Virus record (IMG/VR): IMGVR_UViG_3300037422_000298
Direction: 5' to 3' (one strand)
DNA from: a virus
Lineage: Duplodnaviria > Caudoviricetes
Length of the DNA: 64,000 nt
Shown: positions 587-61,909 of the stretch, piece by piece
Numbering within the stretch: position 1 is the first letter of the stretch
How the letters are laid out: each line of letters begins with the position of its first letter
Translations under genes and position numbers: made by a program
The notes under the pieces: generated by a model
Databases searched by the model: none
The model's input: the letters and a program-made list of their open reading frames with translations, nothing else
What the model was told of the DNA's origin: nothing

Positions 587-904
587 GTGCTCGCGATCGA
601 GAACATCTTCGGCCTCGGCCAGGACGCGACACCCGCGCCGACGCCGACAGTGACAGCCGACAACCGCCGCAACGTGACGCTGCCTGCGGTACCGGATAAC
701 ACCATCGTTCGTTGCAAGTTCGATCCGGTGATCAACGGCATGCGTTGCGAGCCGGTTCAGCTGCTGGAGCCCCCGATCGTATTTATGCTCGCGGCGGGTG
801 GCCTCGCGTCGCTGCTTCTTGGCTATGCGCTCGGTCGCGCGCAGTTCTTCTCGCGATTCGCCAAGCACGTCGCAGAAGATCCGTTACACGTTCGTCGGCG
901 CTAG
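587..904 (+). CDS. Small membrane protein with N-terminal FGLG motif, TM helix and RRR tail
   Basis: ORF track; hydrophobic IVFMLAAGGLASLLLGYALG. Confidence 0.7.
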   Translation: MLAIENIFGLGQDATPAPTPTVTADNRRNVTLPAVPDNTIVRCKFDPVINGMRCEPVQLLEPPIVFMLAAGGLASLLLGYALGRAQFFSRFAKHVAEDPLHVRRR

Positions 905-1260
905 TTCTGACAGCTCGGGCAAAGGTCTTCAGGGCTGTCGCTCGATGATCGCCGCCAACGTTTCTCAACACCGAGCGCGTCGAGCTTTGCGATTGCGTCT
1001 TCGCGGTTTTGGCCGCGCGTCGTGATCGCGACGCCACAACGATCGCAGATGAGGTCGGCTTCGGAGTAGCGATCGCCGAGCTTCGAGAGGTCCGGCGGCG
1101 TGTCCATGTGATCGAGGCAGAAAAACGGACCATCGGGAAGTCGTGGGTCGTCCTTCGCGACGAAGAGATGTGTTGGGCAGTTCGCGCACGACACGGTCAC
1201 ATGCGGGACGCTCGGATCGTCTGGGTCGGCGCCTTCAAGCGGCCAAAGCAGCTTCTTCAA
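901..1260 (-). CDS. Cys-rich (Zn-finger-like) hypothetical protein
   Basis: CANC, CDRC and CPSC motifs; TTG start overlapping the upstream stop is inferred. Confidence 0.55.
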   Translation of the reverse strand: MKKLLWPLEGADPDDPSVPHVTVSCANCPTHLFVAKDDPRLPDGPFFCLDHMDTPPDLSKLGDRYSEADLICDRCGVAITTRGQNREDAIAKLDALGVEKRWRRSSSDSPEDLCPSCQN

Positions 1261-1580
1261 GCGCTCACCGGAGTCGACCACAACGACTGTTTGAAGCCGA
1301 CGCTCTTGGGCTGTGTTCGCACGAGCGCGATCGGCGGACGCTTCTGCTTGGCGTCGTCGGCGGTCTCCCAAACAGCAAGAACGATCGCACCGATGTCGTC
1401 ACCATCTTTTTGGGTGTACGGCATGCACGCGGCGACCGGCCAACGACGAAATACGGAGCGCGCGATCTGCTTCTCGCGCTCAGCGCTGTCGATCAGATCG
1501 GCCTGCGTGACGTCTTCAGGCTTCAAGAGGTAGAGGCGATACGTCGACACGCGCCCGAACCTAACGCTTGACGCTTCCAC
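1257..1580 (-). CDS. Hypothetical protein
   Basis: ORF track; coupled to the downstream ORF. Confidence 0.5.
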   Translation of the reverse strand: MEASSVRFGRVSTYRLYLLKPEDVTQADLIDSAEREKQIARSVFRRWPVAACMPYTQKDGDDIGAIVLAVWETADDAKQKRPPIALVRTQPKSVGFKQSLWSTPVSA

Positions 1581-1661
1581 CGTCGACCGCTACAGTCGTC
1601 GTCGTGAAGTTCTCGCGCCGGTCATCTCGCTCGTCTAGTAGCAGTCGCTAAAGCGACTCCT

Positions 1662-1747
1662 GGAAGGTGAGGTCCGCATGGCGTGGACGCCCGTCTCGAA
1701 AACGGGAAGCCCTTAACTGTGGCCGGGTTCGATTCCCAAACCTTCCG
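1662..1747 (+). tRNA. tRNA-Ser(CGA), non-canonical (8/4-like)
   Basis: Acceptor GGAAGGT/ACCTTCC, anticodon arm CCCGT-CTCGAAA-ACGGG, long variable arm, GGGTTCGATTCCC T-arm, G discriminator, no encoded CCA. Confidence 0.8.
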
Positions 1748-1752
1748 CTGCT

Positions 1753-1837
1753 GGAAAGAAAGCTCAGGCGGGTGCAGAGGCCCGGTTGCTAACCGGGTAG
1801 GCGCGTCAGCGTCCGGGTTCGAGTCCCATTCTTTCCG
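1753..1837 (+). tRNA. tRNA-Ser(GCT), non-canonical (8/4-like)
   Basis: Acceptor GGAAAGAA/TTCTTTCC (8 bp), anticodon arm CCCGG-TTGCTAA-CCGGG, variable arm GCGC-GTCA-GCGT, GGGTTCGAGTCCC T-arm. Confidence 0.8.
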
Positions 1838-1858
1838 CGAAAAAAGTTGCGATCGCTG

Positions 1859-1887
1859 TTGACGGCTGCGATCCGTTCGGGCATCGT
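1859..1887 (+). promoter_or_regulatory. Sigma70-like promoter for the putative ncRNA
   Basis: TTGACG-17 nt-CATCGT. Confidence 0.5.
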
Positions 1888-2108: not shown

Positions 2109-2113
2109 AAAAG

Positions 2114-2147: not shown

Positions 2148-2150
2148 CGG

Positions 2151-6377: not shown

Positions 6378-7040
6378 TTACCGCGAACGGCGGTCATACC
6401 GCGAGATCACGAACACGGCGACACCAGCCAGCGCGAGACCGCCGATGACCGCTCCCACGATCTTGGCGCGATTTGAAATGCCGACGGGCTCTACCGACGT
6501 CACCTCCAACTGGATCTGTACCGCTTGCAGATTCTTGAGCGCGTCCTGTGCAGCCGCTGCCGTCGGACGTATCGACGGCGGCCCCAGTTGATCGATCAAG
6601 GCCTTGAGCAGCAACAAGGCGCGCTGTCGAACCTCTGGCTGCGTCGTCCTCGAAAAATTGTCGACGATGCCTTGAATCGCCTGACCGTAGAACCCGGCGG
6701 TTCCTGTATCAGGGATCTGGCCGCCGCGTACCGCAGCGTCAACCGACGCCGTCAGCGTACTGACTGCCAGATCAGGATTCGTCCTGGCGTGCTCGCGAAG
6801 CGCGAGCACCAGACCGGTAGGGATCTCTGCTAGCGGCGAAAACGGTGCGGGTAGCAACGCGTCGACAACCACACGCAGTGTCCGCTCGTTCGGTGGCGTC
6901 ACGAATAGCAGCGCATCGACGAGCTTCTTCGTGTCGTTGATGGTGGTGCCGCACTTCGGCGGAAACTGCGGGATCGCGTTCTTACCGAATTCACGCGTCT
7001 GCGTCAGGCACGCTACAAAGTTATCGACCGCGTCCGCCAC
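6378..7040 (-). CDS. Paralog family B membrane-anchored protein
   Basis: LREHARTNPDLA motif; C-terminal TM + YDRRSR; GTG start 6 nt after -10. Confidence 0.7.
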   Translation of the reverse strand: MADAVDNFVACLTQTREFGKNAIPQFPPKCGTTINDTKKLVDALLFVTPPNERTLRVVVDALLPAPFSPLAEIPTGLVLALREHARTNPDLAVSTLTASVDAAVRGGQIPDTGTAGFYGQAIQGIVDNFSRTTQPEVRQRALLLLKALIDQLGPPSIRPTAAAAQDALKNLQAVQIQLEVTSVEPVGISNRAKIVGAVIGGLALAGVAVFVISRYDRRSR

Positions 7041-7057
7041 GTTGATAAAGTACACCC

Positions 7058-7091: not shown

Positions 7092-7862
7092 CTATCGGGA
7101 TCGCCGTACTCGGCCTTGTCGGATTTGGTCTTCTACTCGGCGCCGCAAGGGCCCTGCGCTGAGCGCGTATGCGCGCCGCGGCGTCCTTCGTGCGAAGTAC
7201 CAAATCAACAACGCACTACTACTGACGAGCGCGACACCCGTCAACGCAAGCACGACGGTTCGAGCGCGCGACATACGCGCTTCGGGCGATCCCGGTGCGG
7301 GCGTCGGCTCTGGGATCGGCGTCGGCGTCGGCGTCGGCGTGGGCGTCGGTGTCGGCGTTGACTCTGCAAGTTTGGGAAGTGCTTCTCGCGCGATCTTTGC
7401 GGTGTCCGGCAGTGTCCCCGACAGATCTGCGAGCGACTTGACGAACAGTCGTGCCTTCGTCTTGATGTCCGCGCCGACAGCCTTTGGAAAGTTCTCGACG
7501 ACGCCTGCGATCGGCTCGGCGAAAAACCCGTCGATGACGAAGCCCGTCGTATCACGGAGGTACAGCTCCATGATGTTCAAGAGGTGCTGGATCGCGACGT
7601 CAGGATTCGCCGCTGCATGGCGCCGCAACGCGCCGATGAATGAACTTGGGTAGAACTGATTCTGCGCACCGCGCGGCCCCGACGGTCCTTGCAGAATCCC
7701 TTCAGCCATGAGGTTCAATGCGCGAAGGTTCGGTGGAGTGATCTGCTCGACCGCTTCCGGGGTAATGCCCGCACAACCGGTGATGCCTGATCCAGAAAAG
7801 CCGATTTTCACGCACTCTTCGAGTGCGTTCAGTGTATCGGTCGTGGCGTCACCGAAACGCAT
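7092..7862 (-). CDS. Paralog family B membrane-anchored protein with Pro-Thr linker
   Basis: Starts MRFGD; LRRHAAANPDVA; (PT)n; C-terminal TM + Arg tail. Confidence 0.7.
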   Translation of the reverse strand: MRFGDATTDTLNALEECVKIGFSGSGITGCAGITPEAVEQITPPNLRALNLMAEGILQGPSGPRGAQNQFYPSSFIGALRRHAAANPDVAIQHLLNIMELYLRDTTGFVIDGFFAEPIAGVVENFPKAVGADIKTKARLFVKSLADLSGTLPDTAKIAREALPKLAESTPTPTPTPTPTPTPIPEPTPAPGSPEARMSRARTVVLALTGVALVSSSALLIWYFARRTPRRAYALSAGPLRRRVEDQIRQGRVRRSR

Positions 7863-7865
7863 CGT

Positions 7866-8810
7866 TCAGAAGCTGGACTTGGAACGCGCTGTCGCCTTCG
7901 GCAACGACGACCGCGACTGCTTGTAGCGATAGAGCATGTAGCCGCCGACGCCAACCGCAGCGACCGTCGCGACGATCCCGATGATCCCGAAGAATCCGAG
8001 TCCAGCGCCCGGTTTTGATGGATCGATGGCAGTGCCCGCGACGCCCTTGAGCACGGCGACTGCCGCAGCGTTCGCTTCCGCAGTGCACTTTGAATGCACC
8101 GCAGGATCTGTCGAAGTGCCGACACACTTGGCGACCAGCGTAGTCAGCGCCTCGAACGCCTTCAAGTTGATCGCGGCGAGCGCCTGCTGGCGTTCGGCGT
8201 CGGCGCGCGCGACTTCAACCTTGCCGCGCTCCTTGGTCACGGCGACCGTCACGAGAACGACCGTGGCGGCCGTGAGCGCCAGACCGATCAGGAAGGCTAC
8301 GACCGGCGCGAGTCCGAGCCCCGACGGCGCGCTCCACATCCAGTCGTTGATGTCGCCATCGTGGAGTGCGCCTTCGAGCGTGCCGACCTTCTCGTGACCC
8401 ACGGGACCGTACTTCACGGTGATCTGCGACAGTCGAACCGGCTGCGTCGGTGTCGTCAAGACGGCGCCCCAACCACCCCAACCGGTCGTCGGCGTCGCCA
8501 CGCCGATTTCTGGCGGGAACACCGGCACGGCGTTCGCGTCGAAGCGATCTGCGGCAGGCGTTTCTTCGTAGGCTTTCTTCCACACTTCAGCAGCTGCCAC
8601 GAAGCCGTTACGGGCATCCGTGTAGCTCTGAATCAGCTCCGGCGCGATCGTTTGGTTCGGCGCGATTGCACTGAGCTGCGCGAGCTTGCTGAATGCGAGC
8701 TTGAGCTTGGCTTCTGCATCAGCGAGAACGTCAGCCAGGGCCGCTGTTTGCGGGTCGAGAGGGGTAGGCGTGGTCTGACCAAGGCCGTACGCGAGCTGGG
8801 AGACGAACAT
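7866..8810 (-). CDS. Two-TM putative virion membrane protein with several GLG motifs
   Basis: YGLGQ, SGLGL and AGLGF; two hydrophobic helices; basic tail. Confidence 0.7.
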   Translation of the reverse strand: MFVSQLAYGLGQTTPTPLDPQTAALADVLADAEAKLKLAFSKLAQLSAIAPNQTIAPELIQSYTDARNGFVAAAEVWKKAYEETPAADRFDANAVPVFPPEIGVATPTTGWGGWGAVLTTPTQPVRLSQITVKYGPVGHEKVGTLEGALHDGDINDWMWSAPSGLGLAPVVAFLIGLALTAATVVLVTVAVTKERGKVEVARADAERQQALAAINLKAFEALTTLVAKCVGTSTDPAVHSKCTAEANAAAVAVLKGVAGTAIDPSKPGAGLGFFGIIGIVATVAAVGVGGYMLYRYKQSRSSLPKATARSKSSF

Positions 8811-8847: not shown

Positions 8848-9576
8848 TCAGCGCCGACGTCGACGAGCCAACGCGGGCGCCGCACGGGGCGCGGATAGCC
8901 CCGCAGCGAGCAGTCCAATCGCGGCAGTTCCCACGACGAGTCCGAGCCCGACCGCGACCGCGAACGTCTTTTGTCGTTTCGTTTGATCATCAGTCGTCGC
9001 AGACACGAACGGCGTGGTCGTATCGGGTGTCGGTTGTTGTGGCGCCGCGATCGGCTCGCCGAGGTCCGTCAGAATTTTCGCCGCGCGTTGTGCGGGATCT
9101 GTCAAGTCGGTCGCCGCGGCAACGCGCTGAAGTGCCGCCACGATGCGTGCGCGCAGATCCGCTGACGGTGGCGGCGTAACACGTATCGCGACACGCGCAT
9201 CGAGACCGTCGACGGCGTGCGACAAGAAACCGTCCGGGCCTGCGTTCGCCCGTGCGAGCGTGCCTTCGTTCAGTAGCAGATCGATGCCTTGCAGAAGCAG
9301 CTCGGCCGCGAGGTCGGGGTCTGCGTCGGCGTGAATGCGAATGACATCCGGGGCGAACGACGTCTCCAAGAATGGATTCGGCCCGGCAGGACCGCGCGCG
9401 AACGCTTGGCCGATCAACTCCAGCACGCGGCGGTCTGCCGTCAACGTCGACGGCGTCAGGTCGACCATGACTTTCGAGAACGTTGGACGGCATGCGATGG
9501 GATCCGCTACGCACGCCGTGAGCGCCGTAACGACCGTGTTGACGTCGAAAGCCTGGCCGAATTGCGCGAAGATCAC
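8848..9576 (-). CDS. Paralog family B membrane-anchored protein
   Basis: Starts MIFAQFGQ; IRIHADADPDLA; C-terminal TM + RRRRR. Confidence 0.7.
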   Translation of the reverse strand: MIFAQFGQAFDVNTVVTALTACVADPIACRPTFSKVMVDLTPSTLTADRRVLELIGQAFARGPAGPNPFLETSFAPDVIRIHADADPDLAAELLLQGIDLLLNEGTLARANAGPDGFLSHAVDGLDARVAIRVTPPPSADLRARIVAALQRVAAATDLTDPAQRAAKILTDLGEPIAAPQQPTPDTTTPFVSATTDDQTKRQKTFAVAVGLGLVVGTAAIGLLAAGLSAPRAAPALARRRRR

Positions 9577-10023: not shown

Positions 10024-10419
10024 ATGAAGCGCTTGTTCCTGTTCGTCGCCTTCGCGATCGGCCTCGGCACCACCAACGCGAGCTGTCCCGGACCCGGACC
10101 TGGACCAGTTCCCGTCGTCGTCAACGCGATCGTCGACTGCACGCTACAGAACCAGTCGCAGATCACGGCGTTGATCGGCGAGTTCAAGACGCTCCTCGTC
10201 GGACAGCTTCCCGACTGGAAGGCGATCTACCAACGCGCCAAGAACGCGGGCAAGGCAATCGGCGGCTGCGCGCTCGCCGAGCTGGTGCAGGACTACCTCG
10301 GCAACAAGAGCGCACCACCACCGCAAGCCGACAGTTGGAACGCGTTCCAGGCGCTCGAACGGTTCCGCCGTGAAGAGGCAGGCAACGCGACGTTCAAGAC
10401 GGCGAAGGGCGACTTGTGA
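10024..10419 (+). CDS. Secreted/lipoprotein-like protein
   Basis: MKRLFLFVAFAIGLGTTNASC signal with lipobox-like Cys, PG linker. Confidence 0.65.
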   Translation: MKRLFLFVAFAIGLGTTNASCPGPGPGPVPVVVNAIVDCTLQNQSQITALIGEFKTLLVGQLPDWKAIYQRAKNAGKAIGGCALAELVQDYLGNKSAPPPQADSWNAFQALERFRREEAGNATFKTAKGDL

Positions 10420-10976
10420 AACGTCGCCGCCGTCGTCAGCTCGGCGATCAGATCGTCAACGGTACGGCGTATCGCGACGAGACCGACCCGCGTGTGATCA
10501 ACATCCTCGAAGCAGCGCGTAGCGGGCCTGACTTCGCGATTCGCAGTACGGACGTCGCGCGCGGCGAGCGCATCTGTGTTCGCTACGGCGATACAGAAAC
10601 CGGTCGTGACTGGGGCGACCCGCCGATGTGCGGCAGGATCGGTCGTAGTCAAGGCACGCCAGGTCGGGACTACACAAACAGGATTCCGTTGCTCATCAAG
10701 AGCAAGCGCAGCATGGGCGGCGAAGCGATCCTCGATCACAAGATCATTCGCATCACACGCAGCGCCAAACCCAAGCATAAGCACGGCGTAAAGTACGTCC
10801 TGTTCGAGCACCCGAAGTATCACTATTCAGAGGGCGAACATGCCGAGCAGATCGAACAGATCGCGAAGGACGTCGACAAGGAGGCCCGCGACGCCGCCCG
10901 TCGCGGCGATAGGCCGCGCGCTGAGGAGCTGCGTGTGAAAGCGCGCGAGATCCGGCGGCAGAAGTGGAACCCATGA
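10416..10976 (+). CDS. Conserved-phage-type hypothetical domain with N-terminal KRRRRRQLG tag
   Basis: NGTAY..ETD..V..ILE; YGDTETGRDW; GRIGRS; GGEAILD pattern recalled from phage hypotheticals. Confidence 0.7.
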   Translation: MKRRRRRQLGDQIVNGTAYRDETDPRVINILEAARSGPDFAIRSTDVARGERICVRYGDTETGRDWGDPPMCGRIGRSQGTPGRDYTNRIPLLIKSKRSMGGEAILDHKIIRITRSAKPKHKHGVKYVLFEHPKYHYSEGEHAEQIEQIAKDVDKEARDAARRGDRPRAEELRVKAREIRRQKWNP

Positions 10977-11230
10977 AGAAACGACAGCTCGGCGAGAAAG
11001 TTCACTGGCGAGCGGTCCGCGGCGGCCAGGACGCAGCACGCGCCTTCACCAAGGTCGGTCGCTGCATGGTGGTCTCCGAGGTCAATCCCAACCCACCCGA
11101 GACGTCCAAGCCGTATCGCTGGTACATCGTCGAGCGCGGCACGAATCGCGTGCTGGATGCTGGTTCGACGAACACCATGCAGGCCAACCGCGCGACGGCC
11201 GTCTCGCGTGCACGTGGACGTTGCCGATAG
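10973..11230 (+). CDS. Small basic protein (MKKRQLGE...)
   Basis: ATGA overlap with the upstream stop. Confidence 0.6.
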   Translation: MKKRQLGEKVHWRAVRGGQDAARAFTKVGRCMVVSEVNPNPPETSKPYRWYIVERGTNRVLDAGSTNTMQANRATAVSRARGRCR

Positions 11231-11242: not shown

Positions 11243-12094
11243 ATGTTCGCGTTCGGGCTACCCACCACGCACGTTCTCCGTGATCTCACGAACGAGGTCT
11301 GGATACAGGACAACTGGGACACGCGACTCATTCTTGCAGACGCTTACGAAGAGCTGGGACGCCCTGACATTGCAGCGCTGTGGCGCGACGAGCTACCGCG
11401 TTACCGTCGACGAAAGCGCATCGACAAGCTCTCCGACGACGAATTCGAGCAGATCGCCAGGAACATGAAGTGGTACGTGCAAAACGTCCAGCTTCGAACC
11501 GGACCGAGCGACGAACAACTCGCGCTCGCGGCGATCGGTTGCCTGTACCGTGCGGCGGCACGGCGTCAAGGCGAGAACGTCATCTATCCGCGCGTCGTAT
11601 GGTTTCCGGCTCCGAACGTTGTCCGTCACAACCTCGTCGACGCTAACGGGGAGCGCCGTGTCGATCTCGGTGACACGATCTGGTACGCGAGCCGCACGTG
11701 GGATCGCAACCTCTCGGAGCGCACCGAGCGCCTGATCTACAACGACTATCAACGGTTCAGTCGACGATACAGTGATGCTACGTACGCCGCAGGCAACGAC
11801 GAAAACATGAACTTGAGCGGCGGCCTCAGTGGTGGGCAATTCAACTGGCAGCTCCTCACGACCGCGTCGACCATCGACGTGTTCCGGCTCTATCAAGGCA
11901 CTGAGGGGGACGGCGACAACAACGAGCTGAGCCTGCGCGCGAGCTTGACATTGATCCGTTGCACGCCGTTCTACTACGCGTTCGAGCGCGCCTGCGTCTT
12001 GTCGCAGCACCCGACGATCATCGATGCCGACCAGCCACGATGGGCGTGGCTCGATGGCGCCAACAACCCTCACCAGTGGCCAACAACACGATGA
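11243..12094 (+). CDS. TIGR02996-like N-terminal domain protein (C-part DUF6745-like)
   Basis: DTRLILADAYEELG resembles the RLVYADWLEE.G motif. Confidence 0.55.
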   Translation: MFAFGLPTTHVLRDLTNEVWIQDNWDTRLILADAYEELGRPDIAALWRDELPRYRRRKRIDKLSDDEFEQIARNMKWYVQNVQLRTGPSDEQLALAAIGCLYRAAARRQGENVIYPRVVWFPAPNVVRHNLVDANGERRVDLGDTIWYASRTWDRNLSERTERLIYNDYQRFSRRYSDATYAAGNDENMNLSGGLSGGQFNWQLLTTASTIDVFRLYQGTEGDGDNNELSLRASLTLIRCTPFYYAFERACVLSQHPTIIDADQPRWAWLDGANNPHQWPTTR

Positions 12095-12501
12095 GTCGCC
12101 CGTACATCTGCAAGATCCGCACAGATCGGCTACGCAAGCTGAGCATTCAACGCTTGCGAAGGACGCAGGCCGTTATCTCGCACCTGTCTGAAGACGCTTG
12201 GGAGACAGGCGCGGATCTGGCGTCGAGGCTCGTGACGGAACTCGAACAGGAAAAACTTTGGCGATTCAACGCCGAGAGGGCGACCAGCCCAGGTGACCGT
12301 CAGGCATATCAACGGTTCGCTGACCAAGCATCTGCCGACGCCAAGAAGCTCGAACATAAAATCTGGAACAGGCAGATGACGACAGGCTGCAAGATCCCAG
12401 AGTACGAACAGGTCGCACGCGACGCTGATCGCGAAGGTCAGCACATCACCGCCGAAGTAATTCGCAAACAGCGCAGCTTCGGTCGCCGGAGGCGAACATG
12501 A
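12091..12501 (+). CDS. Helical protein ending in SFGRRRRT
   Basis: ATGA-coupled on both sides. Confidence 0.6.
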   Translation: MSRPYICKIRTDRLRKLSIQRLRRTQAVISHLSEDAWETGADLASRLVTELEQEKLWRFNAERATSPGDRQAYQRFADQASADAKKLEHKIWNRQMTTGCKIPEYEQVARDADREGQHITAEVIRKQRSFGRRRRT

Positions 12502-13259
12502 TCGGCAAGCTCGGTCGTTCAGAAACTTCACGGCGCGATCTGCGCACGCTGTGGTACGGACGCTACGCATCTGGACCTGGCTACACAGCGCCGCCGCCGC
12601 TCGACGACTGGACGGGCCCTACGGGCGACTACAGTTGGCTGGGCAACGATCGCGTCGGCTGCTGTACGCGTGCTTGCTATGGCCACATCGTGCAGCAACG
12701 CTGCGCGCGGCTCGACGTCCCGTGCACGTTGACCGAAGATGATGTCCTCAAAGCCTACAAGGACGGCACCGGCTGGGATGGCGTACCAGGCTCGTTCTCC
12801 GATCGCGGTGACATGATCATCAACGCGCTCGTGCAGATGAAGAACGTCGGGCTCGGCGACTACAAGATCTCGCAGTTCGGTCGCGTCAACCACAACGACA
12901 CCATCGAGATGCGCGCCGCGCTACACCTGTTCGGGTCGCTGATCATCGGCGCGAGCTTACCAGAGGCAATCCGCCGTCAGGGCAACGCGTGGGACGTCGG
13001 CGAACCCGGTCAGCGCCAGCCCGACGACGCACCCGGCTCGGCAGGCGGCCACGCGTTCATCCTGACGGGTCACCAGCGTGGCAAGTGGTGGTCGATGCCG
13101 TGGATCACGAAGACGACGATCACGTACGCGTGGGACGACCTCTACATCGACGAAGCGTGGTTCGTCGTCGATGATCTGTGGGTGACACAGAATCGTGCCG
13201 CGCCGAACGGTTTCGACCTAGCGCGGCTACAAGCTGACGCGGCAGCAATCGCGGCCTGA
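12498..13259 (+). CDS. Papain-like (C1-type) cysteine protease
   Basis: LGNDRVGCCT (catalytic Cys) and GGHAFILTG (catalytic His); W-rich strand after His. Confidence 0.7.
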   Translation: MIGKLGRSETSRRDLRTLWYGRYASGPGYTAPPPLDDWTGPTGDYSWLGNDRVGCCTRACYGHIVQQRCARLDVPCTLTEDDVLKAYKDGTGWDGVPGSFSDRGDMIINALVQMKNVGLGDYKISQFGRVNHNDTIEMRAALHLFGSLIIGASLPEAIRRQGNAWDVGEPGQRQPDDAPGSAGGHAFILTGHQRGKWWSMPWITKTTITYAWDDLYIDEAWFVVDDLWVTQNRAAPNGFDLARLQADAAAIAA

Positions 13260-15053: not shown

Positions 15054-15904
15054 AGCCCCGCTAGTGTATCGAGGTCCGCGAGAAGCGAATACGCGAATTC
15101 GTACTCGGCAGCTGCCCATGCCGCTTCGAACGCAGGTCGTAGGTTCGCGTCCAGCTCGGGTGACAGCTCCTTGCCCTTGAGCGCGTCCTTCACGCGCCAG
15201 TGGAACATCCGTCCGGTGATCTCTTCTGTCGGCTTACCCGCGTTCGCGAGCGCGATGCTGATACGGTGCAGGACGCCGCCGCCCGCGCCGTCGAGCATGC
15301 CGACCGTCGGGTTGCTTGTTGCGTGCTTGCGCAAAAACTCGCAGGCTTCTCGCGCGGCGAGACCGACGGGGTCCCAACGCGCGCATTCATCAGAAGACAG
15401 CTTCGTAGTTACACGAAGAGCTGCTGCAGCGCGGTTCGTGCTCGCGACCGCACGCTTGCCGACCTCGGTCGCGTACCAGTACAGCCGCGTCATCGGATGA
15501 TCGTTGTACGTACCGAAGTCCTTCGGAACGTCGATCGGTTCATCGTTGACGTACGACTGGACAAGCCCGACGACGTGATTGATCTCGAAGCGTGCTTCAG
15601 TGACTTCCGGCGGGTCGATCAGCACGCGCGTATCGCCGAGCACGCGATACGAATCGCCGTCGACGGGGACCTCGGCTCTGTTGTGCTTGTCGAGAGCGTC
15701 GACGCGGGGATCGTCTGAGTTGACCCATACAGGCGCGGGCGTCGCCCACCGAATCAGCTCGCACGCGAGCGCGGCGGCGTTCTTGGCTTCATGCCACGGC
15801 CAACCGAGCGAGAACTTTTCGAGCGAGATCAGCTGGACGCGATTGAGCCGCGGCGCATCTTCGTCGGTCGCTACAGACAACCGCGGACGCCGAATTCGCG
15901 CCAC
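15050..15904 (-). CDS. Hypothetical protein
   Basis: ORF track; coupled operon. Confidence 0.65.
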   Translation of the reverse strand: MARIRRPRLSVATDEDAPRLNRVQLISLEKFSLGWPWHEAKNAAALACELIRWATPAPVWVNSDDPRVDALDKHNRAEVPVDGDSYRVLGDTRVLIDPPEVTEARFEINHVVGLVQSYVNDEPIDVPKDFGTYNDHPMTRLYWYATEVGKRAVASTNRAAAALRVTTKLSSDECARWDPVGLAAREACEFLRKHATSNPTVGMLDGAGGGVLHRISIALANAGKPTEEITGRMFHWRVKDALKGKELSPELDANLRPAFEAAWAAAEYEFAYSLLADLDTLAGL

Positions 15905-16305
15905 TACTCGTTCGCTTTCTCGGCCTCGATCGCACGCATCGCGTAGTCCATCGCCTCGCGTGCATCACCGCCGGGCGGTACGAGACAGATGAAGTCGTCG
16001 AAGAAATCGACGTCGTTGACCTCGCCGAGTTCGTCCGCGACCATCGGGCGCGTCGCACGCAATGGTGGCCCCTGGACGTCTTGAATCACTTCGACGAGCG
16101 CGAAGCACGCGAGCCCGAGCGTGCGCGTCGCTGCGTTGCTGTTGACCGTTGGGTCGCGGAACACGGCGCGCCAGCCATCGGCAGGTGTGATTTGGAGAAT
16201 GACGAACGGCGGGATTTCATCATCCGCGTCGGCCGCGTCTGCGCTTGCGTTCGGGTTGCCGTCATCGTCACCGATGCCGAACATGTCTTTGTCTTTCTTT
16301 GCCAT
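15904..16305 (-). CDS. Acidic hypothetical protein; resembles 30169-30438
   Basis: PADGWRAVF..LACFALV vs QPGWLAVF..IACWVLM. Confidence 0.6.
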   Translation of the reverse strand: MAKKDKDMFGIGDDDGNPNASADAADADDEIPPFVILQITPADGWRAVFRDPTVNSNAATRTLGLACFALVEVIQDVQGPPLRATRPMVADELGEVNDVDFFDDFICLVPPGGDAREAMDYAMRAIEAEKANE

Positions 16306-16341: not shown

Positions 16342-16845
16342 TCAACCATTTAGCCACTGAGGATCGCGCAGGTTGCGGTACGCCGACACCGTTTGAAGTG
16401 CTTGTAGCGTTCGGGGCCCGACTTGACCGTCGACTTCGAGATTGCGGATGATGGATCCTCCGAGTTTGGCGCGTGCGACCGCACCCCGATTTGCGATCCA
16501 GTCGAGCGACGCGTTGAGACGCCTCTGCAGATTTTCGACGCCTGTCCGCAGCGCGCCTTCTGACAACCAACGCTGCAACTTGCCGAGTGCTACCCAGCGT
16601 GCAAACGCTTCGGTGCAGTCCTCGCACGTCGAGATCTTCACGGAGCCGTCGACGGCCTCGAAGACAACATCGGGACGGCGCCACGGCATCGGCCCGTCGT
16701 AGACGTCGTCCCACGATGCTGCGCAACCGATGCAGATCTGGTCGAGCAGCCCCACGCGCTGCGCGATCTCGATCGCGACTTCGTAGTGGCCTGCCAGGCT
16801 GGCCGCTTGAATCGCGGCGCGCACGTTCTCGCGTTCGCCGTTCAC
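16342..16845 (-). CDS. Paralog family C protein with C-terminal peptidoglycan-binding-like motif
   Basis: VRAAIQAA..ICIGC..TCEDC; LEVDGQVGPRTLQAL. Confidence 0.65.
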   Translation of the reverse strand: MNGERENVRAAIQAASLAGHYEVAIEIAQRVGLLDQICIGCAASWDDVYDGPMPWRRPDVVFEAVDGSVKISTCEDCTEAFARWVALGKLQRWLSEGALRTGVENLQRRLNASLDWIANRGAVARAKLGGSIIRNLEVDGQVGPRTLQALQTVSAYRNLRDPQWLNG

Positions 16846-53723: not shown

Positions 53724-53921
53724 ATGATCGCAGCAAACCTGGGTGACGGTCTCGGCCGTCGTCGTCGTCGCCGTCGCTCTCGCGGCATGGGCGCGCTCCC
53801 CACCCTCGTCGGCCGTCGCCGCCGGGGCAAGGGCAAGCGCCGCGGTCGCAAGATCTGCATCCGCACGGCCGCGGGCAACAAGGTCTGCGGCACCCGGTGG
53901 CGCCGCCGTCGCCGGAAGTAG
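53724..53921 (+). CDS. Protamine-like Arg-rich putative core protein
   Basis: MIAANLGDGLGRRRRRRRSRGMG..LVGRRRRG..WRRRRRK; SD AGAGGA; own terminator. Confidence 0.75.
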   Translation: MIAANLGDGLGRRRRRRRSRGMGALPTLVGRRRRGKGKRRGRKICIRTAAGNKVCGTRWRRRRRK

Positions 53922-54016: not shown

Positions 54017-54307
54017 ATGCCCACCAAGAAAGTGTCCGCAGCCGACCGGCGACACGCCGACTTCATGATCAAGACGCTCGCGCCTGATTTGAAGGCGAGC
54101 GGGCGCACGCACACCGCCAAGGATGTCGCACGCTGCGGGCGCCTCATGAAGTCGGGTGGCCGCGATCGCGGCTACGCCAACTGGCTCAAGCGCACGTTGA
54201 TCCCAGATCTGCGGGCTTCGGGACAGAAGTACACCGCGAACGATCTCGCACGCTGCGCGCGTACGATCTCGAATCAGCGCAAGCGCCGGAAGCGAAGGGC
54301 GCGCTAA
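54017..54307 (+). CDS. Basic protein with internal duplication and Arg tail
   Basis: TL.PDL.ASG...TA.D.ARC.R occurs twice. Confidence 0.7.
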   Translation: MPTKKVSAADRRHADFMIKTLAPDLKASGRTHTAKDVARCGRLMKSGGRDRGYANWLKRTLIPDLRASGQKYTANDLARCARTISNQRKRRKRRAR

Positions 54308-54537
54308 TGTCGAAGCGCGTCGAGTTCGCTGACCTGCCTGTCGGCTCCTGCTTCGCGTACGACGCGAGCAGCAAGCACGCCACACGGCGCAAGGTCGACG
54401 AGCGCCACACCGTCGTGATCCCCGGCAGTAAGAAGCCGTTTCGCGTCGACGACGTCGAGACGCGTGTCTTCACGAAGGCCTGTCCCGTCAACTTCGGCCG
54501 TCGTCGCAAGCGGCGCCGCACCAAGAGGAGTCGCTAG
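54307..54537 (+). CDS. Small basic protein ending NFGRRRKRRR
   Basis: ORF track; coupled. Confidence 0.7.
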   Translation: MSKRVEFADLPVGSCFAYDASSKHATRRKVDERHTVVIPGSKKPFRVDDVETRVFTKACPVNFGRRRKRRRTKRSR

Positions 54538-54539: not shown

Positions 54540-54818
54540 ATGGCGAAGAGGAAACGGCGCAGGTCTCTGCGCGGCAGCGAAGATCGCTACGTCGTCAGTG
54601 GCCCCGCCACGTGGCGACGCAGCCTCCACGCGTCGAAGAGTGCAGCGATCGATCAGGCGAAGGCCTGCTCGAAGAAGCATCCCAACGCGGTCTGTAAGGT
54701 CACGCAGGGCCTACCCGGCCTGCAGCGCACCGTCGCCGAGTGCAACCGCAACGAGTGCTGGTCCGCTGATGGCGGCGTCGGCAAGCGTCGGCGTCGTCGG
54801 CGCAAGGCGAGGCGCTAG
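54540..54818 (+). CDS. Small basic protein with Arg tracts at both ends
   Basis: MAKRKRRRSLRG...GVGKRRRRRRKARR. Confidence 0.7.
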   Translation: MAKRKRRRSLRGSEDRYVVSGPATWRRSLHASKSAAIDQAKACSKKHPNAVCKVTQGLPGLQRTVAECNRNECWSADGGVGKRRRRRRKARR

Positions 54819-54820: not shown

Positions 54821-55153
54821 ATGGCGGGGCGCAAGCGTCGTCGCCGTGGGCTCGGTAGCTCCGAGGCGATCCACACCAAGAAGATGTCCGAAGCGTCGTC
54901 GGAGATCGGACATATGGTCGCGCTCGTCACCAACAAGGCGCGCAACGGCCGGTGTGGTGCCGCGTCGAACGCGTACGGCTCGATGATGACCGCCTATGGC
55001 GAGTACCTCGCACACCAGGGCGCAGGCGGTCGCGCGAGTGCGCCTTCGCATGCTGCATCGATCCGCAAAGCCGCGACCGAGTTCAACAGCGCGTGCCTCG
55101 TCAACCACAGCCACACGATGACCGGACGTCGGCGTCGCAAAGCACGGAGGTAG
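54821..55153 (+). CDS. Small basic protein with Arg tracts at both ends
   Basis: MAGRKRRRRGLGS...MTGRRRRKARR. Confidence 0.7.
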   Translation: MAGRKRRRRGLGSSEAIHTKKMSEASSEIGHMVALVTNKARNGRCGAASNAYGSMMTAYGEYLAHQGAGGRASAPSHAASIRKAATEFNSACLVNHSHTMTGRRRRKARR

Positions 55154-55424: not shown

Positions 55425-55778
55425 ATGGCCAAGACACTCGTCAGCGTCATCCGCCCCGGTGACAAAGTCACGATCGTCACGCCGCAGGGTCAACAACGTA
55501 CCGGTCGCGCCGTTATGCGTTCATCGCACGGCGGTTGGGTGCTCAACATGGGCGGCAAGCACGGCACGCCCGGCATCGCCGACGACAGCAACATCGTCGC
55601 GGTCCGCGTTCGTGGAAGTTTCGGCGCCGTCACAAAACGCTGCGAGGTCTTTGCGACAGCCAAGCCGCGCGCGAAGCGTATGGAGTACGCAGGCAGCTTC
55701 GAGTCATGCTCGGCCGCCGAAGACTACGCTGAATACCTGCGCAAGGGTGGTCACAGAGCCCGTGTGAAGAGGCGCTAA
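55425..55778 (+). CDS. Small basic two-part protein split by GSFG
   Basis: RPGDKVTI..GWVLNMGG.HGTPG; start at ATG 55425. Confidence 0.65.
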   Translation: MAKTLVSVIRPGDKVTIVTPQGQQRTGRAVMRSSHGGWVLNMGGKHGTPGIADDSNIVAVRVRGSFGAVTKRCEVFATAKPRAKRMEYAGSFESCSAAEDYAEYLRKGGHRARVKRR

Positions 55779-58236: not shown

Positions 58237-58731
58237 ATGCCGAAGAAGAAATCAACCAAGCCGACCGTGAAGCCTGCAAAGCCTGCGAAGGCTGCGAAGG
58301 TGCCAAAGGCGCCGAAGTCCAATGCGACTGACGTTCCGTGCCTTCGCGTCGTCGTTGGTGGTCGACAAGGCAAGACCGGCCAGACCGACGCGAATACGTG
58401 CGCGATCGTCGGTGAGAGTCGCGGAAGCGTCACGAAGTTCGATCTCAGACGCGAATACGGCTCGACCAGCAAGACTGTCGCGACGCCGAAGAAGAACAAG
58501 CCGTGCTTGAACGCGCTCAAGCGTAAGGGTTGTCCGGTACAGCTCGCGTTCGACGACGGTCAGCCATTTCTGCGCTTCTGTCGCGCGAACGGCGAAGCGG
58601 GCTACCGTGTCGACGTCAACTCGCCTGCGGAAGCCGTCGAGAAAGCCAATGCAGCCTGTGGTACTTGGACGGCCACCGGCAAGTTCGATTTCCCGCCCGA
58701 GACGCCGTTGCGGGGACGGCGACGTAAGTAA
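58237..58731 (+). CDS. Lys-rich basic protein ending LRGRRRK
   Basis: KPAKPAKAAK histone-H1-like N-terminus. Confidence 0.7.
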   Translation: MPKKKSTKPTVKPAKPAKAAKVPKAPKSNATDVPCLRVVVGGRQGKTGQTDANTCAIVGESRGSVTKFDLRREYGSTSKTVATPKKNKPCLNALKRKGCPVQLAFDDGQPFLRFCRANGEAGYRVDVNSPAEAVEKANAACGTWTATGKFDFPPETPLRGRRRK

Positions 58732-58782: not shown

Positions 58783-59238
58783 GTGCCACACGTGTTCACC
58801 CTAGAAGGCGCCAACCTCGGTGCAGAGCCCGTGAACTTTCCCGAGGCCGGTCAGCCCATCGCACCACATCAGGCGATCGTCGGTCCGACGCGCGTCGCGC
58901 CCATGGTCTACGGCCCCGGCGGTACACCGATCATGTATCGGCGTCGCTATCCAGCACGCGGTCCCGTCTGCGACTACTGCGACCCCGACTACTTCACCGT
59001 CATGAACGGAGGACAGACCGTGATTCCATACCGTCAACAGCAGCTCGGTGACAGCGTCGAGGCCTTTCTGGAGCGTCAGTCCGATACCAGCCGGACTGTC
59101 ATGGTCGTAGGCGGCGCACTTGGCGTTGGTGCAGCTCTCGCGACGCTCGGCGTGTGGCTGTACTACAAGATCGGCTACAAGCCGAAGCGCAGCGCAAGCG
59201 GCTGGGGCGATAGTGGTTGGGGCGGATGGAAGTGGTGA
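58783..59238 (+). CDS. Membrane protein with NLG/QLG motifs
   Basis: ANLGAE, QQLGDS; TM; GWG repeats at the C-terminus. Confidence 0.7.
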   Translation: MPHVFTLEGANLGAEPVNFPEAGQPIAPHQAIVGPTRVAPMVYGPGGTPIMYRRRYPARGPVCDYCDPDYFTVMNGGQTVIPYRQQQLGDSVEAFLERQSDTSRTVMVVGGALGVGAALATLGVWLYYKIGYKPKRSASGWGDSGWGGWKW

Positions 59239-59239
59239 C

Positions 59240-59557: not shown

Positions 59558-59561
59558 TCGC

Positions 59562-60089
59562 GTGCTGCAGCGTTTGACACTTGCACTTCCCGAACGCGAG
59601 CGCGTCGCGCTCCGTGACGAAATTCTTCGTCGGTCCCAGCACGTCCCCAGCTACACACGCACGCACGCGACCAATGCTTGGCGTTCCGCGAGCGATTTGC
59701 ACACGTGGCCCACAGCAGCCGTCTTCTGCAACAGTCTCATTCAACTCCTGCAGGCGAGCGCGAGGCTCCCCATTGAACCGAAGACTCTTCGTGCATGGGC
59801 CATCGTTAGTCGTCGAGGTTCAGCACACGGTCGGCACATTCATCCTCAGCGCTTTGCGTGGTCCGGTGTCTACTATCTCGAACCCGGCGGTGCTGACAGC
59901 GCGCGGACCGTGTTCGAGACAGCCGAAGGTCTTGTGCCTATTGCACCCGAACGCGATCTCGCGATCGTTTTCCCCGCCGATTTGTGGCATTCAGTAGAGC
60001 CGCATCCCAACGACGACATGCGCGTCACGATCGCCTTCAATATAGAAGCCAAGCCGGGTTGCGTTGATCGCGCGAGCGATCGGGTGTAG
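59562..60089 (+). CDS. 2OG-Fe(II) oxygenase (TIGR02466-like)
   Basis: HIHP..SGVYY; FPADLWHSVEP; RVTIAFN. Confidence 0.8.
   Translation: MLQRLTLALPERERVALRDEILRRSQHVPSYTRTHATNAWRSASDLHTWPTAAVFCNSLIQLLQASARLPIEPKTLRAWAIVSRRGSAHGRHIHPQRFAWSGVYYLEPGGADSARTVFETAEGLVPIAPERDLAIVFPADLWHSVEPHPNDDMRVTIAFNIEAKPGCVDRASDRV
60066..60081 (+). promoter_or_regulatory. GATCGC-N4-GCGATC promoter palindrome
   Basis: GGGTG-TAGGTT; leadered, with AGGAGG SD before ATG 60143. Confidence 0.75.
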
Positions 60090-60142
60090 GTTTTGATCTA
60101 CCTCGTCTCGTCAAGAGACCCCGGCCACGGCTAGGAGGACAC

Positions 60143-60538
60143 ATGGGTACGAAAGCTGGAACACTTCTCTGGAACCGTCAGCGGCTCACGCTGGATGCAG
60201 GCCTCACATCGATCGACACCCGTCTGCAGCAGGTCAACAAGAGCTTCGCCGACATGTCGCCGAACGAGCCGCCGCTCGGTGTGACGATCGCACCGCCAGG
60301 GCCACCCGATGGCACACCGCCAGCGTCCCGTATCCAGGTCATTCCCATGTCGCCGATCCCTCTGTGGACGGACATCACGCACGGTGAACCGTTCGTGAAT
60401 CCTGCGACGGGTACCGTCTGGGTGACGTTCAACAACGGCGGCAAGACGCCAGTCGAAATCAATGTCCTGTTCTGGGATCCGCACTCGGCCATCGGCCCCG
60501 GCCAAGCCAGCACGTACAACGTCCTCATCGAGGGCTGA
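60143..60538 (+). CDS. Beta-rich putative virion protein
   Basis: TVWVTFNN..INVLFWDPHS. Confidence 0.65.
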   Translation: MGTKAGTLLWNRQRLTLDAGLTSIDTRLQQVNKSFADMSPNEPPLGVTIAPPGPPDGTPPASRIQVIPMSPIPLWTDITHGEPFVNPATGTVWVTFNNGGKTPVEINVLFWDPHSAIGPGQASTYNVLIEG

Positions 60539-60541
60539 CCG

Positions 60542-61147
60542 TCAGCTCTGCGGCGCGGGCGGTTTTTTCTTCTCCGTGAACGCCGCAAATTTGACGATGC
60601 GCTCGCGTGCGAGCAGCACCCAGTCGACGTACTTGATCGCGGCGACGTTCGCGACGCCTGCGTTCCCAGCAGCATGTCCTGCGAGCGCGCAGCGCAGCCG
60701 TCCCGTGCCTGTGCGGTCTCGGCAACGCTTGTCGTTGAGCCAAGTCGCCAGCTCCTTCGCGCCCGCGCGATAGCCATACGCGACGTCCGTACGCATCCGC
60801 TGGCATTCCGTCCACGAGACGTAGCCGCCCGCCTGTAGCGGACCACAGTACCAACTGGGCCGCGCCTTCGGCGGCGGCTTCGCTGGCGCCCACACACCGG
60901 TCTTTCGTGTGCAGCTTGCCGGATCATCAGACTCGCATTCGAGACGGCTCAACGCGCGTTGATCGAACCGCGACTCGACGTAGGCGACACCAAGCAGTAG
61001 CGTGACTGGATCATCGACGCCCAACTCGTCGAGTTTGTATTCAGCAGCTGCGGCGATGGCCGCCTCGACGTGAATCCGCGCTTGATCCGACGGTAGTTGG
61101 AACGAGATCGCGATGATTGCGGCGATGAGCGCTTCGAGAGTCATCAT
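60542..61147 (-). CDS. Lytic transglycosylase-like (SLT/lysozyme fold) protein with N-terminal hydrophobic anchor
   Basis: VAYVESRF (catalytic Glu); CGPLQ; ALAGHAAG; KYV. Confidence 0.7.
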   Translation of the reverse strand: MMTLEALIAAIIAISFQLPSDQARIHVEAAIAAAAEYKLDELGVDDPVTLLLGVAYVESRFDQRALSRLECESDDPASCTRKTGVWAPAKPPPKARPSWYCGPLQAGGYVSWTECQRMRTDVAYGYRAGAKELATWLNDKRCRDRTGTGRLRCALAGHAAGNAGVANVAAIKYVDWVLLARERIVKFAAFTEKKKPPAPQS

Positions 61148-61187
61148 GGCCGCGAACCTACTACGAGCGCGTCTGTATGGAAGCGTC

Positions 61188-61203
61188 GATCGCTCGCGCG
61201 ATC
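61188..61203 (+). promoter_or_regulatory. GATCGC-N4-GCGATC promoter palindrome
   Basis: ATGA-TAGGCT-6nt-GTG(61220). Confidence 0.8.
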
Positions 61204-61219
61204 ATGATAGGCTAAGTGC

Positions 61220-61909
61220 GTGTTGACACTCTCGGCGTGGCCCACGGTGGCTTCTCAACAAGCCGAATTCGACCTCCATCAGCGGTTGAATCGGCTCCCG
61301 TGGTACGCACCGTCGGGTGCGAGTCTCGGCGCTGCCTCGTGGCCACGCATCTGGTCGACGGAAGCTGAAGTAGATCTGCAGTCACGCTTGAGCCGTTTGC
61401 CGTTCTACGCGCCGACAGGGCTCGGCGACATCGTTTCCGACGTTCAAAACCTCCTGCAGCAGCTCCAGTCGGGCGCTCTTGGACAGAAAGCAACCGAGGC
61501 GCTCCAAAAGCTCAACGCGATCATCGATCAAGCCGGGCCGCATCTCGACACCGTCATGCAGCTGCTGCAGGACCCGGCACTTCCGCAGGTGGTCGATCGT
61601 CTCAAGACACTGCAAACAATGTCCGCGACGCCGACGACGCCGACGGACACAACGACACCGACGGAGACAACACCGGCAACTCCACAGCCTACTGCCGCAG
61701 CCAAGCTGGTTCCGGTGCTGGATGCGGCGATCTTTGTCGAGCAGCATCCTGCAGCAAAGTTCGCGCTCGAACACCCAATCCTCGTCGGTGTCGGTGCTGC
61801 TGTCGTGTTAACTGGACTCGGTTTTGGTATCGGCTACGGCGTCTCGCGCGCTCGTGCGAAGCGTACGATGACGCCTGCTGCTTTCGGTCGTCGCTATCGA
61901 CGACGTTAA
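61220..61909 (+). CDS. Membrane protein with duplicated LG-terminated N-terminal peptide and FGRRYRRR tail
   Basis: WP...AE.DL..RL.RLP.YAP..LG occurs twice; TM near the C-terminus. Confidence 0.75.
   Translation: MLTLSAWPTVASQQAEFDLHQRLNRLPWYAPSGASLGAASWPRIWSTEAEVDLQSRLSRLPFYAPTGLGDIVSDVQNLLQQLQSGALGQKATEALQKLNAIIDQAGPHLDTVMQLLQDPALPQVVDRLKTLQTMSATPTTPTDTTTPTETTPATPQPTAAAKLVPVLDAAIFVEQHPAAKFALEHPILVGVGAAVVLTGLGFGIGYGVSRARAKRTMTPAAFGRRYRRR

Follow-up and report, generated by a model that had tools for sequence, protein, structure and literature searches.

Hydrophobic-glycine junctions join arginine-rich tags and short leaders to unrelated proteins in a lineage of apparently tail-less giant phages

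Results

Shared end-pieces on proteins flanking the replication block

This analysis concerns a 64,000-nucleotide stretch of viral DNA (IMG/VR record IMGVR_UViG_3300037422_000298), termed the window throughout, and a set of short terminal extensions (end-pieces) carried by the products of its flanking genes. Approximately 18 otherwise unrelated small or membrane proteins bear such end-pieces, which are arginine-rich tags or non-basic leaders joined to the remainder of the protein via a conserved pair of residues, i.e. a hydrophobic residue followed by glycine (Table 1; genes are named by the first of their coordinates, and ↓ marks the junction). Three forms were distinguished: (a) an N-terminal tag, M-A-(K/R)n-x0-3-hydrophobic-Gly, in which the junction reads Leu-Gly or Leu-Arg-Gly (genes 10416, 10973, 54540 and 54821); (b) a C-terminal tag, hydrophobic-Gly-(R/K)n, on small soluble basic proteins (genes 12091, 54307, 54540, 54821, 58237, 59240 and, on a membrane protein, 61220); and (c) a non-basic leader of the form M-(L/F)-x-...-hydrophobic-Gly, with Q, D or E as the next residue, on proteins anchored by a C-terminal membrane helix (genes 587, 7866, 8848 and, less surely, 7092, with gene 15904 giving an acidic protein that bears such a leader). 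Junctions of the type A-G↓ also occur (MAG↓, VAG↓, IAG↓), and the junction unit may be present in tandem, as in G↓QFGQLG↓Q and GLG↓DAGLG↓E. All termini quoted in a preliminary description of this DNA were found in the sequence at the positions it gave, and its list can be extended by genes 15904 and 53724. The latter encodes a protamine-like protein in which each arginine run is bounded by the pair (NLG↓D, GLG↓R7, GMG↓A and LVG↓R4), and it is the first of seven small, very basic genes that are clustered at 53.7–55.8 kb. Within this cluster the tails of 54540 and 54821 have ...KARR in common and are probably related. Comparison with PHROGs matched just two families, both of unknown function.

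Table 1. Genes of the window that carry end-pieces, and further genes discussed in the text.
Position	Strand	Feature	End-piece or remark
587..904	+	Small membrane protein, one membrane helix	Leader MLAIENIFGLG↓Q; end ...HVRRR
6378..7055	-	Tail-anchored membrane protein	Basic end RYDRRSR, without hydrophobic-Gly junction
7092..7862	-	Tail-anchored membrane protein	Start MRFG↓D; basic C-terminal region
7866..8810	-	Membrane protein	Leader MFVSQLAYGLG↓Q
8848..9576	-	Tail-anchored membrane protein	Leader MIFAQFG↓Q; end ALA↓RRRRR
10416..10976	+	phrog_17487 protein	Added N-tag M-KRRRRR-QLG↓D
10973..11230	+	Small basic protein	Start MKKRQLG↓E
12091..12501	+	136-amino acid protein	End RSFG↓RRRRT
15904..16305	-	Acidic protein	Leader MAKKDKDMFGIG↓D (MFGIG↓D)
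53724..53921	+	Protamine-like 65-amino acid protein	NLG↓DGLG↓R7SRGMG↓ALPTLVG↓RRRR...
54017..54307	+	Small basic protein, internal duplication	End ...NQRKRRKRRAR, no Gly junction
54307..54537	+	76-amino acid protein	End VNFG↓RRRKRRRTKRSR
54540..54818	+	92-amino acid protein, both tags	N-tag MAKRKRRRSLRG↓S; C-tag GGVG↓KRRRRRRKARR
54821..55153	+	110-amino acid protein, both tags	N-tag MAGRKRRRRGLG↓S; C-tag HTMTG↓RRRRKARR
58237..58731	+	Lys/Pro-rich basic protein	End TPLRG↓RRRK
58783..59238	+	Membrane protein	Conserved start PHVFTLEG; QQ(L/F)G↓D just before membrane helix
59240..59557	+	105-amino acid protein	End EDFG↓RRKKSRKRRRRR
61220..61909	+	Membrane protein, ML-type start	Internal TGLG↓D after duplicated pro-region; end AAFG↓RRYRRR
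12498..13259	+	Papain-fold cysteine peptidase, C1-like	Assigned from fold and catalytic residues; phrog_19005 (function unknown)
10024..10419	+	Lipoprotein-like, signal peptide ...TNASC	Conserved pairing with gene 12498
16342-16974	-	C-terminal PG_binding_3 domain	3 kb from gene 12498
42849-44612	+	DUF87/HerA-type ATPase, 587 amino acids	Inside replication block
45217-47841	+	PolA (family A DNA polymerase)	Fused N-terminally to uracil-DNA glycosylase domain
Replication block		Ribonucleotide reductase	Intein-bearing
Replication block		SNF2 helicase and DEAD helicase	

Distribution and statistics of the junction motif

The end-pieces are confined to non-replication genes. The replication and nucleotide block occupies the centre of the window (about 17.0–53.65 kb), and none of its 39 genes is tagged, against 15 of the 44 flanking genes (p=2e-5), in line with the preliminary description, which had noticed no such pattern at replication-enzyme termini.

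The frequency of the motif was compared with that in 200 within-protein shuffles. [LFMIV]G[RK]3 occurs six times in the window against 0.8±0.9 expected, and 42 times against 10.8±4.0 among the 1222 proteins of the window and eight relatives, i.e. an approximately four-fold excess, while the control motif [LFMIV]A[RK]3 was found 25 times in the same proteins against 14.5 (1.7-fold). Additionally, glycine occupies position −1 of non-membrane C-terminal basic tracts in 22 of 68 proteins (32%, against a background of 7.5%) or, when counted by orthologue group, in 12 of 47 (p=1.4e-4); before internal basic tracts its frequency is 13% (C-terminal versus internal, Fisher p=0.013). N-terminal tags are followed by the hydrophobic-Gly pair in 16 of 43 candidates, where about 9% would be expected from a dipeptide estimate made here. 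A DNA-slippage origin of the arginine runs is ruled out, since the arginine codons of the tails are mixed (CGC, CGT, CGG, AGG and CGA).

In the case of the leaders, ML-type leaders were found at 22 first start codons against seven expected (p=5e-6). Counted over whole proteomes, G[LMIV]G[QDES] and [FY]G[QD] show no enrichment; it is at N-termini alone that they are over-represented. The loose leader pattern also fits internal start codons, at a rate of 0.6%, and single leader calls that lack orthologue support are therefore unsafe. This applies to gene 7092, as its only match in relative G001 is weak and paralogue-like, and no orthologue supports MRFG↓D. Thus, among the leaders that had been proposed at the outset, those of 587, 7866 and 8848 are kept in orthologues, and that of 7092 lacks such backing.

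Conservation and modularity of the end-pieces

Relatives of the window in IMG/VR are 31–221 kb in length and share ~70–78% nucleotide identity with it in the syntenic part. The full sequences of eight of these were compared, with G001 (221 kb) and G002 (196 kb) being near-complete. The end-pieces proved to be conserved and modular, and in the alignments the junction glycine is the most constrained position while the length and sequence of the tail or leader vary.

The 58237 family illustrates this most fully, as the glycine is followed by a basic tail of 2–12 variable residues in 68 of 70 homologues (42–95% identity), the junction being PLRG in 46, PLQG or PLKG in two and (L/A/K/Q)G in most others. 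Similarly, (N/S)FG↓RRRKRR is present in all four orthologues of 54307 and (M/L)FG(I/M)G↓D/E in all five of 15904, while orthologues and paralogues of 59240 have NLG↓, GLG↓, DFG↓ or LDG(A/T)↓ ahead of a basic tail. The protamine-like 53724 keeps ENL(M/S)G↓DGLG↓K/R in three aligned orthologues and TLVG↓R in two. The orthologue of 54540 in G008 carries AFG↓S as N-tag and AGLG↓KRKRRRKARR as C-tag, and the C-tags in orthologues of 54821 read NGLG↓R5, AAIG↓R4 and SGLA↓R6. With respect to the membrane proteins, the G001 orthologue of 587 retains ...NIFGLG↓QDAT and that of 8848 starts with VIFSQFG↓Q. Of the two sites first proposed for 58783, QLG↓D is conserved as QQ(L/F)G↓D in 6/6 members, as is the start PHVFTLEG, and NLG↓A is not conserved. 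All five orthologues of 61220 display an internal GLG↓D or GFG↓G and the C-terminus (F/V/S/M)G↓R-x-Y-R-R-R. A tandem duplication of ~30 residues, E(F/V)DL(H/Q)(Q/S)RL(N/S)RLP(W/F)YAP.G..LG, was additionally observed before GLG↓D in 61220; its orthologues hold one copy or none, so that the length of this 'pro-region' ranges from 10 to 67 residues.

The leader of 7866 ends in hydrophobic-Gly↓Q in 5/5 close orthologues. An exhaustive search for this family yielded 44 representatives, 36 of which are full-length; approximately 27 of the 36 start with M-(L/F)-x and have a hydrophobic-Gly pair within ~20 residues, followed by Q, D or E in 19. Four distant members have separately gained C-terminal tails (AG↓R5, LG↓R5 or MAG↓YR6). 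Absence of a tag is seen elsewhere: homologues of 10416 in tailed phages of Clostridium, Acinetobacter and Microcystis start directly with the domain and lack M-KRRRRR-QLG, an outcome that the preliminary description had put forward for checking, and 55425-family paralogues occur both with and without MAKRKR..LAG. This last family (55425-55778, + strand, with paralogues in G001, G002 and G006) comprises a small domain, …GD(R/K)VTIV..G.(Q/E)RTGRAVM…, which occurs free, N-tagged (MAKRKR..LAG) or fused to a 59240-type domain (G001, 177831-178529).

Not every basic end belongs to this system. In 6378, 7092 and 8848, as in relatives (GGYVLY↓RRKRAA), basic residues stand straight after a C-terminal membrane helix with no glycine. 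Of 17 basic ends that follow an anchor of this kind, only three have glycine at position −1. Such ends look like ordinary positive-inside/stop-transfer topology signals. They account for part of the initial list.

A papain-like peptidase and its lipoprotein partner

The product of gene 12498 has no match to a Pfam family at E<=0.01 (and hence none to Peptidase_C1) and no sequence match in the Protein Data Bank. Its AlphaFold2 model (predicted local distance difference test, pLDDT, 88.7) has as its best solved structural match in Foldseek xylellain (3ois; E=6e-8, template modelling score 0.65), followed by cathepsins K, L and B and falcipains (E 1e-4 to 1e-3); matches in BFVD are phage Peptidase_C1 proteins, one of which is annotated 'Peptidoglycan binding-like'. 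It has in common with xylellain and the phage Peptidase_C1 proteins an N-terminal arm before the papain core, and differs from them in its lack of a Pfam Peptidase_C1 match, in the presumed oxyanion residue (Asn50 in place of Gln) and in its lipoprotein partner gene. N50, C56, H185 and E219 are invariant in 49 metagenomic homologues, and C56 (GCC) and H185 (GGHA) in 19 sequences of down to 35% identity. On this modelled fold the enzyme is a member of clan CA (papain) and not an adenain-like clan CE protease. The window has no clan CE protease, its only protease having the clan CA fold (the relatives were not searched with C5, C57 and C63 models).

Every relative whose sequence spans this part of the genome retains the enzyme, at 72–97% identity. 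It is acidic and untagged; it starts with M-I-G-K-L-G↓R, in which Gly6 is invariant, although this LG↓R/K start represents a trait of the family since tailed-phage homologues share it. The stop codon of the tagged gene 12091 overlaps the start of 12498 (ATGA, 12498-12501), suggesting translational coupling. Homologues were identified on two tailed-phage contigs, L061 (54% identity) and L063 (36%), after genes for a Phage-tail_3 giant protein or Baseplate_J, and in L059 (44%), which belongs to the present lineage as a distant member. Each of these three protease genes has a lipoprotein 10024 homologue directly upstream, and in L061 a protein with three membrane helices is also encoded upstream. 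The gene after the protease homologue matches Amidase_2 in L063 (E=7e-5) and PG_binding_1 in L059 (E=1e-4), values that reach the Pfam cut-off or narrowly miss it, while in L061 it has no Pfam match. Lipoprotein homologues are also present in G001, G002, G003, G006 and G007, and the family has a conserved C-terminus, ...ERFR.E.AG.ATF.TAKGDL. Within the window, the PG_binding_3 protein 16342 and the product of 60542-61147 (- strand; N-terminal hydrophobic segment, SLT-like ...VESRF... motif and no Pfam hit) are candidate cell-wall enzymes.

The pairing with a lipoprotein beside peptidoglycan-hydrolase-like genes in tailed phages weakens a role of 12498 in maturation. A role in lysis appears at least as likely as tag maturation, and the pair 10024 and 12498 may constitute a new envelope-disruption (lysis) module. 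The initial identification of 12498 as a papain-like protease is thus borne out by its fold and by Cys56/His185, while the tag-removing role tentatively suggested for it has lost ground to its lysis-type gene context.

A C39-type peptidase in the relatives

Proteins of ~200 amino acids with a Peptidase_C39 domain (PF03412; E 1e-14 to 4e-18, above cut-off) are encoded by G001, G002, G004, G005 and G009. The Q-C-H-D set of catalytic residues is intact, with Q..YSCG, QGHF and MDPN conserved. The protein opens with a leader of the type described above (MLALQSQGLG↓D, MLAAA.(H/Y)LG↓D), which is followed by the C39 domain, a single C-terminal membrane helix as anchor and a final RRKRAA. Three of the four copies have another (L/F)G↓E/G site in the stretch that separates the domain from this helix. 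The leaders end in hydrophobic-Gly and not in Gly-Gly, Gly-Ala or Gly-Ser; glycine is common at position −3 and not at −2. No exporter domain is fused to the C39-type proteins (the neighbouring genes were not searched for an ATP-binding cassette, ABC, exporter). Judged by its sequence features, this enzyme is at least as good a candidate for cutting the tags as 12498, and both retain intact catalytic residues.

The lineage and other genes of the window

The window has short, densely packed genes and two tRNA-Ser genes. No known phage is close to it, the best phage identity for its polymerase being 26%; the nearest phage polymerases (~26% identity) include those of a Methanomicrobiales virus and 'Manatee Spring' phages. 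Neither of the near-complete relatives G001 and G002 has a match to the Pfam models for Terminase_6N, HK97 capsid or portal, and the lineage apparently consists of tail-less, giant (to ~221 kb) uncultured phages. Relative G006, which has a terminal-repeat flag, was rejected as a complete genome without C39, as its ends are not identical over at least 50 bases and many core genes are missing; it is probably a partial genome. The DUF87/HerA superfamily, to which 42849 belongs, includes type IV coupling proteins and the packaging ATPases of membrane-containing viruses.

LAGLIDADG inteins interrupt three genes of the window (34663-36942, 38630-42235 and 55781-58231, + strand). The first encodes a PD-(D/E)XK protein, the second the large subunit of ribonucleotide reductase, with TSCPD as its C-terminal domain, and the third a member of the GP88 family (PF17338). 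Furthermore, an adjacent paralogous pair (62568-63011 and 63383-63841, both - strand) encodes proteins of 147 and 152 amino acids with the start MA(I/V)TATLV and the end YLD(V/I)E(V/I)PG.IG, and this family is kept even in the distant member L059 (12037-12915). The twin proteins are predicted to form an eight-stranded beta-sandwich (pLDDT 76), whose structural matches (beta-sandwich or jelly-roll-like, CBM and cupin-like) are weak, with a best Z of 5.2 and Foldseek E>0.1. Small capsid or spike proteins are one conceivable identity for them on the basis of this model, but no capsid claim is made on matches this weak.

Discussion

The explanation that we tentatively favour is that the hydrophobic-Gly pair is the recognition or cut site of a phage cysteine peptidase and that the arginine runs bind DNA, with the end-pieces functioning as modular address labels. 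DNA binding is the most plausible function of the arginine runs: they would neutralise the charge of the viral DNA and, by binding it, load their carriers into the particle core, and the protamine-like 53724 would be the bulk condenser. The junction would be what the enzyme recognises and most likely where it cuts, with a hydrophobic residue at P2 and glycine at P1; this enzyme would be a phage cysteine peptidase whose substrates are disordered termini, and the C39-type protein and 12498 are the candidates. The papain family prefers a hydrophobic P2, and cutting with glycine at P1 is known for C39 enzymes, adenain, vaccinia virus I7 (AG↓X) and African swine fever virus (ASFV) S273R (GG↓X). Since one junction occurs on three kinds of end-piece, between arginine runs and before the C39 anchor, a single recognising enzyme is the simplest explanation, and cutting leads among the possible consequences of such recognition. 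In its extended form, close to that of the preliminary description, the proposal holds that poly-Arg sequences are cleavable DNA-address tags that load varied, partly horizontally acquired cargo onto the condensed viral genome, and that a viral cysteine peptidase trims both these tags and the leaders of membrane proteins; this is possible, if doubtful.

A number of observations weigh against cutting. The C39-type gene lies outside the window, with synteny placing it ~2–3 kb past the window end, and C39 enzymes, which cut after glycine in short N-terminal leaders, classically require Gly-Gly. The papain-like family is present in tailed phages without tags, and no arginine tags were seen near the homologues in L061 and L063. 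Pfam searches with 29 proteins from the window and G001 that bear tags or leaders gave nothing except a weak GNAT match for one G001 protein. Among the soluble arginine tails of the relatives, no more than about a quarter to a third bear the junction glycine; conversely, the polymerase (MILG↓RRR) and the HerA-like ATPase (MALG↓RKR) contain [LFMIV]G[RK]3 internally, and sequence alone therefore cannot define a cut site. Finally, no 'pre-cut' form, ending at the glycine or starting right after it, was found among 70 homologues of 58237 and 44 of 7866; none of the 70 orthologues of 58237 ends at the glycine, and the basic tail is never lost. The tails must therefore serve a purpose of their own and may be permanent features.

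This last point leads to the strongest of the alternatives, namely that the end-pieces are permanent and uncut, the arginine tails binding DNA, RNA or membranes and the hydrophobic-Gly pair acting as a hinge or as a peptide for docking to shell, membrane or nucleoid. We regard this as a reasonable possibility, though one that falls short of even chances. Uncut arginine-rich tails are indeed established in the hepatitis B core C-terminal domain and in the arms of small virus capsid proteins, and encapsulin cargo-loading peptides dock cargo. Besides the absence of tail loss, in which even basic tails of 2–5 residues are kept, the 61220 family has a conserved motif, G-R-x-Y-R-R-R, as its tail, and the leaders keep their M-L/F start in addition to the glycine, as a binding peptide would. 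The lysis-linked appearance of the papain-like enzyme points the same way, both peptidases being no more than candidates for a maturation role. Against permanence stands the finding of the same two-residue junction on basic N-tags, basic C-tags, non-basic leaders and between the arginine runs of the protamine-like protein, and a junction common to such differing end-pieces is explained better by the specificity of one enzyme than by a hinge. The tandem junction units likewise argue against it, as does the further pair that precedes the anchor of the C39-type protein in three of its four copies.

The preliminary description had tentatively assigned tag removal to 12498 specifically, which now appears unlikely. 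In its favour, the enzyme combines a papain fold and invariant Cys/His residues with strong conservation across the relatives, is coupled to the FG↓RRRR-tailed 12091 amid tagged genes and has an LG↓R start with an invariant glycine of its own. However, that start is kept in the tailed-phage homologues, which are located after tail or baseplate genes with a lipoprotein gene upstream, no tags nearby and hydrolase-like genes, albeit weakly matched, downstream. The enzyme is moreover acidic and untagged, and a relationship to the cell wall is suggested by its 'Peptidoglycan binding-like' BFVD relative and by the PG_binding protein encoded 3 kb away.

Less probable still is a function of the end-pieces at the host membrane, either as export or membrane-insertion signals handled by the C39-type peptidase, in the manner of the double-glycine leaders of ABC exporters that contain a peptidase, or as positively charged signals for translocation by an ATPase of the FtsK/HerA type, for which 42849 would be an example. 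C-terminal positive clusters act as type IV secretion signals, the leaders are mostly on membrane proteins, the C39 domain with its Q-C-H-D residues is anchored by a membrane helix, and a DUF87/HerA ATPase is encoded in the window. Yet no ABC transporter was seen beside the C39-type peptidase (its neighbouring genes were not searched for one), the leaders are only 7–20 residues long and end in hydrophobic-Gly and not Gly-Gly, and nucleic-acid binding is a better fit for the many tagged proteins that combine small size and solubility with extreme basicity. That the pattern is a by-product of high G+C (62% in the window, with 8.5% Arg and 7.4% Gly) or of recent duplication of one tail, as the probably related tails of 54540 and 54821 might suggest, is very improbable: composition-preserving shuffles give four-fold fewer motifs, the codons are mixed and the junction occurs in at least 12 unrelated orthologue groups over 25–95% identity, so that high G+C, slippage and chance are rejected, along with the GC-driven Arg/Gly bias named at the outset as a possible refutation.

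If the end-pieces are indeed cut, several known systems offer parallels. Adenain (AVP, peptidase C5) cuts the DNA-bound adenovirus proteins pVII, pX/Mu and pTP at (M/I/L)-X-G-G↓X or (M/I/L)-X-G-X↓G. There, as in the window, arginine runs are bounded by hydrophobic-x-Gly, the layout of 53724 resembling that of pre-Mu, and one short site is common to many unrelated proteins (particle proteins in adenovirus, and putative ones here). The sites described here, hydrophobic-Gly↓X and often G-(L/M/V/I)-G↓X or x-F-G↓X, are similar in kind to the adenain consensus but are not that consensus, as a second glycine is absent from the site; furthermore, the enzyme of the window has a papain-clan (CA) fold, the cut is only predicted, the host is bacterial and the genome is approximately five times larger. 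Poxvirus I7 and ASFV S273R process core and membrane precursors, including the vaccinia membrane protein A17, and the resemblance lies in a two-residue, Gly-ending site common to core and membrane proteins, to which the A-G↓ variants may be added; their enzymes belong to clan CE, whereas the candidates here, known from their genes, are papain C1-like and C39-like. In phage T4, a capsid targeting sequence on internal proteins is removed by the prohead protease gp21. This is likewise a short N-terminal address label on unrelated proteins of a bacterial virus, with removal after loading being a prediction in the present case, but T4 has an HK97-type head and a serine protease that cuts after Glu, and Pfam HK97 capsid, portal and terminase models were not matched in G001 and G002.

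In the C39/double-glycine systems, such as that of LahT150 (PMC6363468), a cysteine peptidase cleaves off short N-terminal leaders after glycine. The viral C39-type protein resembles these in its Q-C-H-D residues and in carrying a short leader itself, and differs in having its own C-terminal helix, no ABC exporter fusion and leaders of the hydrophobic-Gly type. With regard to uncut tails, those of hepatitis B core and small capsid proteins are also terminal poly-Arg sequences, which neutralise genome charge; they are, in contrast, part of the capsid protein itself and lack a conserved glycine junction, whereas here many unrelated proteins are involved.

Proteolytic maturation and cleavable address labels are textbook features of tailed phages (T4), adenoviruses, poxviruses and ASFV. 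No published description of such tags in tail-less (membrane-containing) bacterial viruses was found in the literature searched, and to our knowledge neither cleavable address labels nor proteolytic maturation has been described for tail-less membrane-containing bacterial viruses, let alone for those of ~200 kb. With a motif, approximately 18 candidate substrates and two candidate enzymes, the proposal of a cut junction is now defined and testable. If true, a maturation in the style of adenoviruses and poxviruses would operate in a giant membrane-containing bacterial virus with enzymes of the papain clan and not the adenain clan, and a portable tag (M-A-K-R-R-R-x-L-G or F-G-R-R-R-R) would explain the filling of particles of this size and the neutralisation of their DNA. 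Such a tag would also provide a ready-made tool for loading cargo into particles, and would link the bacterial and eukaryotic jelly-roll virus worlds via their assembly logic.

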